A stretch of 64,000 nt of DNA from assembly GCA_902579825.1 (NCBI GenBank), contig CACHII010000003.1:5670-69669 (forward strand). Reading direction: 5' to 3'. The first letter of the stretch is position 1. The number at the start of each line of letters is the position of its first letter. The position numbers were made by a program, and so were the translations under genes. The notes beneath the pieces are model-generated. The model was not told where the DNA came from, searched no databases, and saw nothing but the letters and a program-made list of their open reading frames with translations. The stretch is from an uncultured SAR86 cluster bacterium (GTDB taxonomy: Bacteria > Pseudomonadota > Gammaproteobacteria > Magnimaribacterales > D2472). This document shows positions 42,739 through 45,368 of this stretch, one piece after another.

Positions 42739-43002
42739 ATGAATAAAAAATATTTACTATTCTCATTTTTATTTTTAGCTAGCATTTCATTGCATAGCTT
42801 TGATGACCATCATGATCATTTTGGTTCAACCGAAGAATACACATCTGATTGTCAGGCATGTGAAGAAAATGTTGAAATTAATATTTCAAAAACAAAACCC
42901 TCAAGAGATTTTTTAGAGAATTCTCCTAAAACAAATCTGCTTTCAAGATTTGTTAATTTTGAATCAAAGTCAAATTTATCAAGAGCACCTCCTTCTAAAT
43001 AA
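42739..43002 (+). CDS. small secreted His/Cys-containing protein (hypothetical; DUF2946-like features)
   Basis: 87 aa with signal peptide MNKKYLLFSFLFLASISLHS. The predicted mature N-terminus is FDDHHDHF. It also has a CQAC (CxxC) motif and a C-terminal SRAPPSK. It ends 43 nt upstream of the TonB-dependent receptor on the same strand. Confidence 0.5.
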   Translation: MNKKYLLFSFLFLASISLHSFDDHHDHFGSTEEYTSDCQACEENVEINISKTKPSRDFLENSPKTNLLSRFVNFESKSNLSRAPPSK

Positions 43003-43045
43003 TTAGTTTTTATTTTTCAAACTAATTTTTCATTAAGGAGGAAAT

Positions 43046-45322
43046 ATGAAAAAATTTTTAAATGCGGTAATAGTTTTAATCGCTTTCCATTCGAATGGAA
43101 TAATTTCACAAGATGTTGAAGAGATTGTTGTTACTTCTGCTCTGGTTGATACAACTGAAATTACAAATCCACTATATGTAATTGATGGAGAAGATATTTT
43201 AGATGATGCAACAACTAGTCTAGGGGATGCAATCGATAGTTATTTGGGTGTATCTATAGCTGATTATGGTGCTGCTGTGGGACAACCAATTATTCGAGGT
43301 ATGTCAGGTCCTAGAGTCAAAATTCTTAAAAATGGAATGGTAAATCGTGACGTTTCTGGACTTGGAGTTGATCACTTAAATGATGTTGATCTAAATGATA
43401 TATCTCAAATTGAGATTGTTAAAGGTCCATCCTCTTTGTTATATGCAAATGGAACAATTGGTGGAATTATCAATGTGGTTGATGACACTATATCAACAGT
43501 TAATTTTGAGTCACCGAAGGCAAACTTCGGTCTAGAAACTCAATCAGTAAATGATGGTGAAGCTCAATCTTTCAGTTACAAAGAAAATATAGGTGGATTT
43601 AATTTTAGCTTAGGTTTTAAAGATGTAAATTTTGGAAACTATGATATTCCTGATGGAGCTGTAATGCATGAAGAGGAAGAGCATCATGATGAAGACGAGC
43701 ATGAAGATGAACATCATGAAGATGAGCATCATGAAGAAGATTTAGGATATGTAAATAACTCAGATTTTGCAGTTGAAGCAACTAAGTTTGGTATTTCAAA
43801 AGTAGGAGATTGGGGTTACATAGGTTTTGGAATAGATAACCTTGAAAGTGTTTATGGTATTCCTTTTCATGGAGATGAGCATGGAGATGAGCATGGAGAG
43901 GAGCACGGTGATGAGCATGGAGATGAGCACGGTGATGAAGAAGAAGGTCATGATGAGCATGGAGAGGAAAGAATTTTTTCAACTACTGACTCAGAAACTT
44001 TTTCTATAAAAGGTTCTTACAACTTTAATGGTAGCTTAATAAATAAAATCGATTTCACTTATCGTGATTCTGATTACACTCTAACTGAAGCACACGAAGA
44101 AGAAGAGCATCATGATGAAGAAGAGCATCATGATGAAGAAGAGCATCATGATGAGGATGAGGAAGAGCATGAAGGACATGCTCCAACTGTCTTTGCAAAT
44201 CAAGCTACAGAATATGGAGCAATCTTTGACATTTCTAATGATTATGCAACTCAAAAAATTGTTTTAAATTTTGTTGATGAAGATAATTCAATTGTTGGGG
44301 AAGAGGCATTCATGAATCCAGCAAATAACGAAGAATTTACAATGGGTTACTATTTGAGTAAAGATTTTGATTTGTTTAATGTCGACTTAGGAATGAGAAT
44401 TGATCAAATAGATAGATCTGGCAGTGTTACTGACGAAGATCATGGAGATGTTGATAATTATTCGATAGATGATACTACCAATAGTTTTGCATTCAGCTTA
44501 GGCCGTGATCTCAGTGATACTTTAGATGTAAACTTAGGTTTTGCAAGCGTTGAAAGGCTTCCATCAGTCATAGAGCTCTTTATGAATGGGCCACATATGG
44601 CTACTGGAAGGTTTGAGGTTGGTGATCCAACATTAAGTGCAGAAACTTCTAATAACTTTGATATTACATTCAGTTTTGATAATGGTGATTATTACGGTTA
44701 TGCAAGCTTTTTTGTAACAGATGTAGATAACTATATTACATTAATGGATGAAGACGAAGATCATGATGAGCACGAGGATGAGCATCACGATGATGAAGAT
44801 GAGCATCACGAAGATGAAGATGGGCATGAAGATGGTCATGATGATCATGGTCATGGCAACCTAATACACGCAAACTATATTCAAGAAAATGCAGAGTTTG
44901 ATGGCTATGAAATTGAGTTTGGAAGAACTATTCAAATGGCAAATGGTGATCTAACTCTTTCATTTGGTAGAGATGTTGTAAATGCTGAATTTACTGATGG
45001 GCATAATGTTCCAAGAATAAATCCAGCAAGAAATGTTTATTCACTAGTCTACGATCAAGGTGATCTTCTTTTCAAAATTAATTTAAAAGATGTCGATGAT
45101 CAAAATGATTTTGGTGAGGGTGAGACTGCAACTAATGGATATCAAATGCTAGATGCTAGGCTTACTAAAACATTTGATCTAGATGGAAAAAGCAAATTAA
45201 AAGTTTCATTATTTGGAAGAAATTTGCTTGATGAAAAAGCCAGAAATCATGCATCATTTGTTAAAGATCAGGTTCCCCTTCCTGGTAAAAATGTGGGCAT
45301 AAAATTTAATTTTGATTTCTAG
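43046..45322 (+). CDS. TonB-dependent outer-membrane receptor with four His/Asp/Glu-rich insertions
   Basis: AAGGAGG lies 4 nt upstream of the ATG. A signal peptide is present. Plug-domain motifs are present (EEIVVTSA; QPIIRGMSGPRVKILKNGM; IEIVKGPSSLLYANGTIGGIINVV), and the beta-barrel ends in the typical aromatic residue (KFNFDF). H/D/E tracts lie at nt 43667-43741, 43868-43969, 44093-44179 and 44747-44857. Confidence 0.88.
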   Translation: MKKFLNAVIVLIAFHSNGIISQDVEEIVVTSALVDTTEITNPLYVIDGEDILDDATTSLGDAIDSYLGVSIADYGAAVGQPIIRGMSGPRVKILKNGMVNRDVSGLGVDHLNDVDLNDISQIEIVKGPSSLLYANGTIGGIINVVDDTISTVNFESPKANFGLETQSVNDGEAQSFSYKENIGGFNFSLGFKDVNFGNYDIPDGAVMHEEEEHHDEDEHEDEHHEDEHHEEDLGYVNNSDFAVEATKFGISKVGDWGYIGFGIDNLESVYGIPFHGDEHGDEHGEEHGDEHGDEHGDEEEGHDEHGEERIFSTTDSETFSIKGSYNFNGSLINKIDFTYRDSDYTLTEAHEEEEHHDEEEHHDEEEHHDEDEEEHEGHAPTVFANQATEYGAIFDISNDYATQKIVLNFVDEDNSIVGEEAFMNPANNEEFTMGYYLSKDFDLFNVDLGMRIDQIDRSGSVTDEDHGDVDNYSIDDTTNSFAFSLGRDLSDTLDVNLGFASVERLPSVIELFMNGPHMATGRFEVGDPTLSAETSNNFDITFSFDNGDYYGYASFFVTDVDNYITLMDEDEDHDEHEDEHHDDEDEHHEDEDGHEDGHDDHGHGNLIHANYIQENAEFDGYEIEFGRTIQMANGDLTLSFGRDVVNAEFTDGHNVPRINPARNVYSLVYDQGDLLFKINLKDVDDQNDFGEGETATNGYQMLDARLTKTFDLDGKSKLKVSLFGRNLLDEKARNHASFVKDQVPLPGKNVGIKFNFDF
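43871..43942 (+). repeat. in-frame 12-nt tandem repeat (GDEH)x6 inside the receptor gene
   Basis: The units read ggagatgagcat, ggagatgagcat, ggagaggagcac, ggtgatgagcat, ggagatgagcac, ggtgatgaagaa. That is six consecutive 12-nt units with only synonymous or conservative drift. Confidence 0.85.
44099..44152 (+). repeat. perfect in-frame 18-nt tandem repeat x3 (EEEHHD) inside the receptor gene
   Basis: gaagaagagcatcatgat is repeated three times without a mismatch (44099-44116, 44117-44134, 44135-44152). Confidence 0.9.
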
Positions 45323-45341
45323 TCTTTTAACAAAGAATAAT

Positions 45342-45368
45342 AAAGGGTCCATATGGGCCCTTTTTTAA
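45342..45368 (+). terminator. rho-independent terminator after the receptor gene
   Basis: AAAGGGTCC-ATAT-GGGCCCTTT hairpin (one G-U pair) followed by a T6 run, 20 nt after the stop codon. Confidence 0.75.

Follow-up and report, generated by a model that had tools for sequence, protein, structure and literature searches.

A ZnuD-family receptor with four His/acid-rich tracts and a CruR-like leader ORF form a putative self-regulating metal-uptake unit in a SAR86 bacterium

The zinc receptor ZnuD of Neisseria meningitidis (PDB 4RDR, 4RDT and 4RVW; Calmettes 2015, PMC4557270; Stork 2010, PMC2895646) holds Zn in a buried, high-affinity site made up of Asp99, His100, Glu340 and His499. Its extracellular loop 3 (L3) is rich in His and Asp, and the clusters in this loop bind Cd and Zn in crystals and behave as a 'fishing net' (PMC4557270). 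In Bordetella pertussis, the TonB-dependent transporter of the bfrG operon is preceded by a small upstream open reading frame (ORF), CruR (Bp2923, DUF2946), whose RAPP motif is essential for expression of the transporter (Roy et al. 2022, PMC9426467). Features of both systems were found together in a two-gene unit on a stretch of 64,000 nucleotides (the window) from an uncultured bacterium of the SAR86 cluster, a gammaproteobacterium (assembly GCA_902579825.1, contig CACHII010000003.1, positions 5,670 to 69,669 of the forward strand), with a G+C content of ~33%. The unit consists of a leader ORF of 87 codons (42739..43002) and, after a gap of 43 nt, a TonB-dependent receptor of 758 residues (43046..45322) that carries four long tracts of His, Asp, Glu and Gly. 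Among species-representative genomes, the closest loci were those of SAR86 single-cell genomes and metagenome-assembled genomes (MAGs), with a protein identity of up to 94%.

In CruR, expression of the downstream transporter is abolished by the double mutation R139A+A140S, while the CXXC motif is required for the copper response and mediates shut-off by copper, a response specific to this metal (PMC9426467). The CXXC-RAPP spacing of 45±2 residues is conserved and functionally important: an insertion of five residues impaired regulation, and deletions were tried only up to two residues (PMC9426467). CruR is barely translated, undetectable by proteomics and not obtainable as a recombinant protein, its output is Rho-dependent termination with a spacer of 162 nt, and a homologue of CruR precedes oprC (PMC9426467). 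In vitro, CruR arrests translation when its two Pro codons occupy the P and A sites, and R139A abolishes this arrest; across Gram-negative bacteria, ORFs with a signal peptide and RAPP or RGPP are enriched upstream of TonB-dependent receptors (EMBO J 2025, PMC12992588).

On balance, the SAR86 pair is probably a self-regulating unit, composed of a ZnuD-family receptor, most likely for Zn(II), and a CruR-like leader that would stall the ribosome at RAPP and so unmask the Shine-Dalgarno (SD) sequence of the receptor gene. The receptor gene contains the following features, in window positions.

43046..45322, + strand: ZnuD-family TonB-dependent receptor, 758 residues (Pfam, NCBIfam, PDB profile match, AlphaFold2 model and Foldseek)
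43370..43375, + strand: plug-apex ligands D109-H110, equivalent to ZnuD D99 and H100 (alignment to ZnuD)
43667..43741, + strand: H/D/E tract 1, residues 208-232, in predicted extracellular loop L2
43868..43969, + strand: H/D/E/G tract 2, residues 275-308, in predicted L3, counterpart of the zinc-capturing loop 3 of ZnuD
44087-44089, + strand: ligand E348, equivalent to ZnuD E340 (alignment to ZnuD)
44093..44179, + strand: H/D/E tract 3, residues 350-378, in predicted loop L4, beginning two residues past ligand E348
44594-44596, + strand: ligand H517, equivalent to ZnuD H499 (alignment to ZnuD)
44747..44857, + strand: H/D/E/G tract 4, residues 568-604, in predicted extracellular loop L8

The receptor is a TonB-dependent receptor of the ZnuD family. 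A signal peptide (residues ~1-22) is followed by a TonB box (VEEIVVTS, 24-31), a plug (37-141) and a barrel of 22 strands, and the last residue is Phe (...NFDF). Pfam recognised the plug with 70 bits and the barrel with 81 bits. The best NCBIfam model was that of ZnuD with 197 bits, compared to 36 bits for the TonB-copper model TIGR01778. The cut-off of the ZnuD model (NF038289, 'zinc piracy ZnuD', 950 bits) was not reached and, as this is a narrow 'exception' model, the receptor is regarded as a distant member of the family and not as an equivalog. ZnuD was also the best sequence match in the PDB. When a profile of 113 family members was run against the PDB with hmmsearch, ZnuD (4rdr) was matched over its full length with E = 8e-164, followed by PhuR (8e-44) and OprC (~1e-30). 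The AlphaFold2 (AF2) model of the receptor (predicted local distance difference test (pLDDT) 85, predicted template modelling score (pTM) 0.86) has 22 barrel strands, and Foldseek ranked ZnuD 4rdr first (9e-44, template modelling (TM) scores of 0.81-0.92 on the target) and OprC second.

The alignment indicates that the buried Asp/His/Glu/His site of ZnuD is intact in the receptor: across the 113 diverse family members D109, H110 and H517 do not vary, and conservation of E348 is at least 90%. The receptor contains no Cys, which excludes a copper site of the OprC type, built on Cys and Met.

The four tracts hold 35 of the 42 His residues of the receptor. Outside of them H, D, E and G together make up 26% of the residues, and the expected count for a run of 25 such residues is ~1e-12. 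In the AF2 model the tracts are situated in the long connections of strands 3-4 (L2, 197-240), 5-6 (L3, 272-308), 7-8 (L4, 352-380) and 15-16 (L8, 569-606), and the connections that alternate with these are short turns (2-7 residues). Tract 2, between strands 5 and 6, corresponds in the alignment to the loop-3 cluster 241-HSHEYDDCHAD of ZnuD. As all four share the strand parity of ZnuD L3, the model supports their placement in extracellular loops. They are predicted to be disordered, in agreement with the 'fishing net' of ZnuD L3.

All 120 nearest homologues (70-85% identity) share the four tract positions, the tract lengths being variable, and four or five tracts were counted in each of the 50 SAR86-type loci whose receptor ORF is largely complete. 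In the wider family, clustered at 50% identity, many representatives have one to five tracts in the same loops, often opening with GIPGHxH, and one tract reaches 178 residues; more distant homologues (other Gammaproteobacteria, Opitutales, Bryobacterales, Flavobacteriia) have one to three. Given these counts, the four-tract design is a lineage-wide elaboration of a common, experimentally unstudied theme. The DNA of the tracts consists of in-frame tandem repeats with a period of 12-24 nt, and the length of tract 2 varies from 25 to 47 residues among loci with 72-94% receptor identity. Repeats and length differences between relatives suggest that the tracts are still expanding and contracting by slippage.

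The original prediction for this region, made from the sequence without database searches, had described the two ORFs, their gap, a strong SD, a terminator of its own, plug and barrel hallmarks and four tracts. ORFs, gap and SD were recovered at 42739-43002, 43046-45322 and 43035-43041, the terminator was found as well, the tracts have exactly the quoted sequences, and Pfam identified plug and barrel. The divalent-metal receptor proposed at the time is supported and is of the ZnuD type according to family profile, Foldseek and buried site, and the location of the tracts in extracellular loops rather than in periplasmic turns or the plug is borne out by the AF2 topology and the parity with ZnuD L3. 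The four-tract architecture is not singular, four or five tracts being universal in the SAR86 orthologues and one to five occurring in many uncharacterised homologues from other phyla.

Three features belong to the leader ORF, and three more to the RNA at its junction with the receptor gene.

42739..43002, + strand: leader ORF, 87 residues, CruR-like arrest-peptide candidate (ORF call, homologues, conserved motifs)
42850..42861, + strand: CxxC codons C38-Q-A-C41, putative metal-sensing motif (invariant in the alignment)
42982..42993, + strand: RAPP codons AGA GCA CCT CCT, putative arrest site (P site, Pro84; A site, Pro85)
42988..42994, + strand: anti-SD arm CCUCCUU (codons of Pro84 and Pro85 plus base 1 of the Ser86 codon), predicted to pair with the receptor SD
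43001..43027, + strand: inner A/U-rich hairpin (43001-43009 paired with 43019-43027) of the 43-nt spacer, enclosed by the SD-sequestering stem
43035..43041, + strand: receptor SD AAGGAGG, predicted by RNA folding to be sequestered by 42988-42994

The leader is laid out as a signal peptide (~1-20), a His-rich stretch (HSFDDHHDHF, 19-28), CxxC (38-41), a spacer of 40 residues, RAPP (82-85), two further residues and the stop codon. Its N-terminus, MNKKYLLFSFLFLASISLHS, was judged by inspection to be an export signal, with a hydrophobic core behind a basic n-region. A total of 295 homologues were found in a metagenome protein collection at E ≤ 0.01. In the leader alignment H25, C38, C41, P84 and P85 are invariant, and R82 and A83 nearly so. 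CxxC was present in 46 of the 47 SAR86-type leaders listed, and in those 46 it is separated from RAPP by 40-42 residues (40 in the window). The stretch between both motifs is constant in length and diverges in sequence, so that conservation is limited to the signal-like N-terminus, H25, CxxC and RAPP. One to five residues follow RAPP across the loci. The ratio of non-synonymous to synonymous polymorphism (pN/pS) of the leader versus close relatives was 0.37-0.39. An ORF with signal, His, CxxC and RAPP was also found upstream of distant ZnuD-like receptors in other Gammaproteobacteria, and RAPP or RGPP ORFs without CxxC precede ZnuD-like receptors in Kangiellaceae, Opitutales and Flavobacteriia.

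Membership of DUF2946 was considered for the leader and rejected: there was no Pfam or NCBIfam assignment, and one distant relative gave a marginal match with DUF2946/DUF2607. The matches listed in a profile search with 17 diverse leaders were unannotated SAR86 proteins only, none of them annotated as PF11162. Since Pfam does not recognise it as DUF2946 and its motif spacing is 40-42 and not 45 residues, the leader is called CruR-like and not a DUF2946 member. By analogy with CruR it is probably a ribosome-stalling regulatory leader and not a metal-binding partner protein.

The start of the receptor gene is preceded by TAAGGAGGAAATATG, which includes the SD AAGGAGG. Folding of the RNA of 42976-43051 gave a minimum free energy of -15 kcal/mol (z = -2.9), with the Pro codons of the leader paired to this SD. 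For a comparison between loci, the probability was predicted for each locus that the SD core pairs with the footprint of the stalled ribosome, which was taken to begin at the Arg codon and to end shortly after the stop codon. This probability was 1.0 in the window and averaged 0.91 over 45 non-identical native loci, exceeding 0.5 in 43 of them. The mean fell to 0.62 when the leader end was recoded synonymously (Wilcoxon p = 2e-10 versus native, the loci being related), to 0.66 in chimeras of leader end and SD region from different loci (0.59 for diverged donors) and to 0.46 in 30 other SAR86 genes with a GGAG SD, for which any pairing partner was counted. In these predictions sequestration of the SD is conserved and exceeds all three controls. 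In SAR86 loci L001-L052 a GGAG SD at 5-16 nt from the start was seen in only 30 distinct genes other than the receptor (150 residues or longer); given this small number, the receptor AAGGAGG is atypical for these genomes.

The leader-receptor spacer measures 37-50 nt in all SAR86 loci. The pairing register depends on the clade, the SD being kept occluded each time: CCUCCUU with AAGGAGG, GAGCUCC with GGAGUUC, the tail codons and stop CUCUUAAAUUU with AAAUUUAGGAG, or ACCUCC with GGAGGU. Apparent compensatory changes were observed between CCUUAUA/UAUAAGG and CCUUUUA/UAAAAGG. Because MAFFT aligns the A/U-rich spacer poorly and the register shifts between clades, pairing probabilities per locus and the three controls were used instead of column covariation, and a single consensus RNA structure was rejected. 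The inner hairpin was also considered as an intrinsic terminator and kept only as a minor alternative, its own contribution being -4 kcal/mol without any G-C pair. In L060 (Azotimanducaceae) and L054 (a marine gammaproteobacterium), with spacers of 76-77 nt, codons after RAPP (e.g. CUCCCUCG) or the RAPP codons pair with the SD, and the SD-masking design may thus extend beyond SAR86.

A ribosome arrested with its P site at 42988 would cover the mRNA up to about 43004 (~+16 nt), including the left arm of the stem, and the SD and start codon, situated more than 30 nt downstream, would be available for initiation. As the receptor SD is predicted to pair with the codons of RAPP and the tail, stalling at RAPP would unmask it. 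In the proposed mechanism, the leader would stall the ribosome at its C-terminal R-A-P-P, where Pro84 would occupy the P site and Pro85 the A site; CCUCCUU would then be covered, the SD AAGGAGG would stay open and the receptor would be made. When metal is replete, the ion would bind His25, Cys38 and Cys41 of the nascent chain, which at 40-60 residues from the peptidyl-transferase centre would be just outside the exit tunnel. Metal binding and folding would pull on the chain and release the stall, after which the ribosome would terminate, the stem would re-form and translation of the receptor would be switched off. The receptor itself would take up the free divalent ion, most likely Zn(II): the four disordered surface loops (L2, L3, L4 and L8) may act as a low-affinity, high-capacity 'fishing net' and pass the ion to the buried site of D109, H110, E348 and H517 between plug and barrel, from where a TonB-driven movement of the plug would admit it to the periplasm.

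The features of the small ORF in the original prediction, a signal-like segment, FDDHHDHF (within HSFDDHHDHF), CxxC and RAPP at the C-terminus, were all confirmed, and the ORF is conserved, directly upstream of the receptor in 47 of the 48 SAR86-type loci that have upstream sequence. Its role as a matching His-rich capture partner was not upheld: a single His, CxxC, RAPP and the spacing are what is conserved, and its relative CruR is a regulatory upstream ORF. The suggestion that RAPP proteins of the DUF2946 type occur beside TonB receptors was a good lead; the leader itself stays below the threshold of DUF2946. TonB/ExbBD, an inner-membrane importer and Zur had been reported as missing from the window, and none was found among the window ORFs scanned (20 flanking ORFs, from about 37-52 kb plus both window ends). 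Given the CruR-like motifs and the regulatory nature of CruR, the missing regulator is most likely the small ORF itself.

For the identity of the metal, the regulatory sites of related loci were informative. In the complete genome of SAR86 D2474-A1-1 (L025, CP097973), an orthologous receptor with five tracts has no leader ORF; instead, a Zur-box-like sequence, TGTTATGTTATAACA, was found at 5953-5967, overlapping a -35 box TTGACT, 48 nt before the receptor start. This locus is a natural 'swap' of the regulatory device. In L036, another SAR86 locus, the leader is present and a perfect Zur-box palindrome, TGTTATATTATAACA, is located at its start. Zur-box-like sites with two mismatches accompany the leader in L028, L046 and L050 (SAR86 and related marine Gammaproteobacteria). 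Two further loci without leader, L058 (Rheinheimera) and L063 (another gammaproteobacterium), have a Zur-box-like site at -44 and -88, respectively. Since the same receptor is found under Zur, the leader or both, the simplest reading is that leader and Zur both respond to zinc. The invariant His and CxxC of the leader would suit both Zn(II) and Cu(I). Taken together, the receptor site and family and the Zur boxes favour zinc rather than copper, and among the metals named in the original prediction (Zn, Cu, Ni, Co) the evidence favours Zn. A Zur or Fur box was also sought in the window; three matches to TGTTATAWTATAACA with three mismatches, a number below chance, were located elsewhere and were rejected for this locus.

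The same architecture could serve copper (or Co or Ni) as in Bordetella, with a leader that senses Cu through CxxC and a receptor that imports Cu or another soft metal. CruR, the only characterised relative of the leader, is after all copper-specific, CXXC is a classic Cu(I) motif and OprC, a copper receptor, was the second-best structural match. His/Asp/Glu tracts can moreover bind Ni, Co and Cu besides Zn. On the other hand, the receptor keeps the Asp/His/Glu/His site of ZnuD and lacks Cys, the ZnuD model outscores TIGR01778 by 197 to 36 bits, several orthologues, including leader-bearing loci, are preceded by Zur boxes and not by copper-regulator sites, and the leader has an extra invariant His and falls outside DUF2946. 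A copper system is considered unlikely. It is very improbable that the tracts have no part in metal capture and are neutral slippage expansions in tolerant surface loops, or a form of antigenic or phage-evasion variation. Their in-frame repeats, the variable length between close relatives and the predicted disorder would fit such an origin, but their composition is always H/D/E(/G), in the same four or five loops of receptors down to ~25% identity and from several phyla, tract 2 is homologous to the L3 clusters that bind Cd and Zn in ZnuD crystals (PMC4557270), and the His periodicity would not survive neutral slippage.

As for the leader, the signal peptide, His-rich mature N-terminus and CxxC, the strict co-conservation with the receptor and a pN/pS of 0.37, by which the protein sequence is under selection, could also point to a secreted partner in the periplasm or at the surface, a metallochaperone or 'metallophore-like' peptide that aids capture or hand-off; a chaperone role has been conjectured by others for the CruR-like CutF (cited in PMC9426467). 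Such a partner is quite improbable. Only H25, CxxC, RAPP and the spacer length are kept while the 40 residues in between diverge freely, which suits a ruler better than a fold, arrest by a C-terminal RAPP has been demonstrated (PMC12992588), CruR is hardly made at all (PMC9426467), the leader appears to have no SD, and the orthologous receptor of L025 has a Zur box and no small ORF. The leader might instead act on transcription, with a stalled ribosome that blocks either Rho, as in CruR, or the folding of the A/U-rich hairpin, which with its U-run would be a weak intrinsic terminator, the pairing with the SD being incidental. Rho dependence has been demonstrated for CruR (PMC9426467), C exceeds G in the last 80 nt of the leader (16 C versus 7 G) and a U-run follows the inner hairpin in most loci; against this, the spacer is 37-50 nt long versus 162 nt in B. 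pertussis, the hairpin is weak and has no G-C pairs, and occlusion of the SD is higher than in all three controls (recoded, background, chimeric) and persists when the register changes. Control at the transcriptional level in place of SD masking is thought unlikely, although the two mechanisms are not mutually exclusive.

Several points weigh against a zinc receptor controlled by arrest at RAPP and SD unmasking. In SAR86 itself, arrest, the direction of the switch and the metals sensed and transported are inferred from sequence, models and analogy. CruR senses copper, and Zur boxes occur in a minority of loci and not in the window. The output of CruR is Rho-dependent termination in a long (162 nt), structured, G+C-rich spacer and not SD masking, and the CxxC-RAPP spacing of the SAR86 leaders is 40-42 residues compared to 45±2 in CruR. 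The leader of the window has no match with Pfam DUF2946 (PF11162), and one of 17 relatives matched it with E = 0.018 and 16 bits, versus a cut-off of 23.7 bits. In one SAR86 clade of nine loci QAPP is found, though CruR needs the Arg. Part of the predicted pairing is a by-product of the motif, because CCNCCN Pro codons are inherently complementary to GGAGG and recoded ends still reach 0.62, and the p-values overstate independence, as the loci are phylogenetically related. Finally, the tracts have a pLDDT below 50 in the AF2 model from which the loop topology was derived.

In the QAPP clade (L027, L029, L030, L032, L039, L045, L048, L049 and L052), S/A-Q-A-P-P replaces R-A-P-P, while CxxC, a 41-residue spacing and the SD-sequestering stem are kept. 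Either arrest still works in that context or regulation differs.

A more far-reaching proposal can be put forward tentatively. The leader could be the first zinc-responsive, or the first non-copper, nascent-peptide metal sensor, reading cytoplasmic Zn by its His/Cys/Cys set as this leaves the ribosome tunnel, and acting purely on translation by SD unmasking, to replace or back up Zur in streamlined genomes, with the four or five loops of the receptor adapted to very low oceanic zinc. SAR86 is among the most abundant heterotrophic lineages of the surface ocean, where zinc and cobalt are scarce. If the proposed scheme is true, a very common marine bacterium obtains a trace metal by a ZnuD-type receptor with an unusually large His/Asp/Glu 'net', and regulates this receptor without a dedicated transcription factor, by a co-translational metal sensor of 87 codons. 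The CruR paradigm, at present one experimental case (copper, Rho-dependent), would then extend to a second metal and to a second output, SD unmasking. The leader would be a compact and portable metal-responsive genetic switch, and leader, SD stem and receptor together would provide a sequence marker of metal limitation in metatranscriptomes. The cultured SAR86 strain HIMB1674 carries the module (locus L031), which makes the question directly testable.

Literature searches on RAPP arrest peptides with ZnuD or zinc, and on SAR86 or marine His-rich zinc receptors, gave no description of such a system in the papers covered. BfrG was considered as the Bordetella homologue of ZnuD, in which case the pair would already be known; the ZnuD homologue of B. 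pertussis adjoins znuABC-zur and hence is a different gene. ZnuD-type receptors and CruR-type leaders are known kinds, and what appears to be new is their combination, the unmasking of the SD by the RAPP codons, the likely zinc logic and the lineage-wide elaboration of four to five loops.

Transcription of the module was observed in seawater metatranscriptome assemblies. In one run a perfect match of 240 nt covered the leader, and a contig of 151 nt with one mismatch ran from the end of the leader across the spacer into the start of the receptor; further contigs matched the receptor. Leader and receptor are thus co-transcribed in nature, with DNA carry-over as a possible source, and the contigs, which come without strand, 5' ends or metal condition, are silent on regulation. 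Two elements flank the unit.

42699..42727, + strand: promoter-like site TTGAAA-17-TAGTAT, its end 11 nt from the leader ATG (9 of 12 matches in a consensus scan)
45342..45371, + strand: intrinsic terminator that closes the two-gene unit, a 9-bp stem with five G-C pairs followed by a T run, located at 45342-45363

The total number of promoter-like sites in the region was not above chance in the consensus scan, and TTGAAA-17-TAGTAT was kept in the closest loci. As this site is 11 nt from the ATG and the leader is without SD, the leader mRNA may be nearly leaderless, with a very short 5' untranslated region. In other SAR86 lineages (e.g. L005, L022 and L033) the promoter-like sequence is the 3' coding end of a gene of ~350 residues that overlaps the leader start, which makes its role uncertain.

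The 20 flanking ORFs scanned were housekeeping genes, among them two amidohydrolases, an iron-containing alcohol dehydrogenase, an RNase II/R-like protein, an rRNA methylase, LpxC and SecA, from which leader and receptor are regarded as a stand-alone unit. The RNase II/R-family ORF downstream (45389-46867, 492 residues, TTG start) has RNB and S1 domains only, without N-terminal cold-shock domains, and is short for an RNase R. SecA (48547-51270) starts 35 nt after LpxC; in view of this small gap, the genome lacks a secM-like leader in the classical place. At about 52000-58000 the G+C content of the window rises to 0.42-0.48 from a background of 0.30-0.36, consistent with an rRNA operon.

Leader and receptor were also found, with ~50% identity, RGPP, a TTG start of the receptor and five tracts, in L037 and L038; the contigs, assigned to Alphaproteobacteria, are from single-amplified genomes (SAGs) that carry the label OCS116 / PS1 clade. 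A contig of 2 kb (L007) in a MAG labelled as a Poseidoniales archaeon carried the receptor gene alone, with 73% identity. The placement of these three loci could be due to horizontal transfer or to binning or SAG contamination.

Compared to the described systems, the receptor has the fold and family of ZnuD, its four buried Zn ligands and a His/Asp-rich extracellular loop 3 at the same position, and Zur boxes precede some of the SAR86-receptor orthologues, as is the case for znuD. Identity with ZnuD is ~20%, and Cys is absent. Where ZnuD has two short clusters in L3, the SAR86 receptor has four long and nearly pure H/D/E tracts (five in sister clades), and it is found under a leader ORF without Zur box in a free-living, oligotrophic marine host, whereas ZnuD is from host-associated bacteria. 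The copper transporters OprC/NosA (PDB 6FOK and others), the second-closest structures, bind a bare metal ion as well; the Cys/Met/His copper site of OprC is impossible in the Cys-free receptor, and OprC has no H/D/E tracts of such kind.

Like CruR, the SAR86 leader is the first gene of its unit, directly before a TonB-dependent transporter, and it shares with CruR an export signal, an invariant CXXC, RAPP at 2-3 residues from the C-terminus and a tight CXXC-RAPP spacing; it was classed with the weakly translated, short-lived kind of product. It is shorter than CruR (87 versus 145 residues) and has an extra invariant His with a His-rich run, its spacer of 43 nt is A/U-rich and contains the conserved SD-sequestering stem, the receptor downstream is of the ZnuD type, and there is no PepSY_TM gene. 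With the RAPP/RGPP arrest peptides ApdA, ApdP and the 'TonB-related' class of upstream ORFs (PMC12992588) the leader has in common a C-terminal RAPP/RGPP, a signal sequence and a position upstream of the regulated gene. The proposed logic, in which a stalled ribosome would melt a stem that hides the downstream SD, is that of SecM-secA. In SecM and the other arrest peptides release is brought about by pulling of the Sec or YidC machinery, whereas the SAR86 leader would be released by metal on its nascent chain, and here the anti-SD arm is formed by the RAPP (in one SAR86 clade QAPP) and tail codons themselves.

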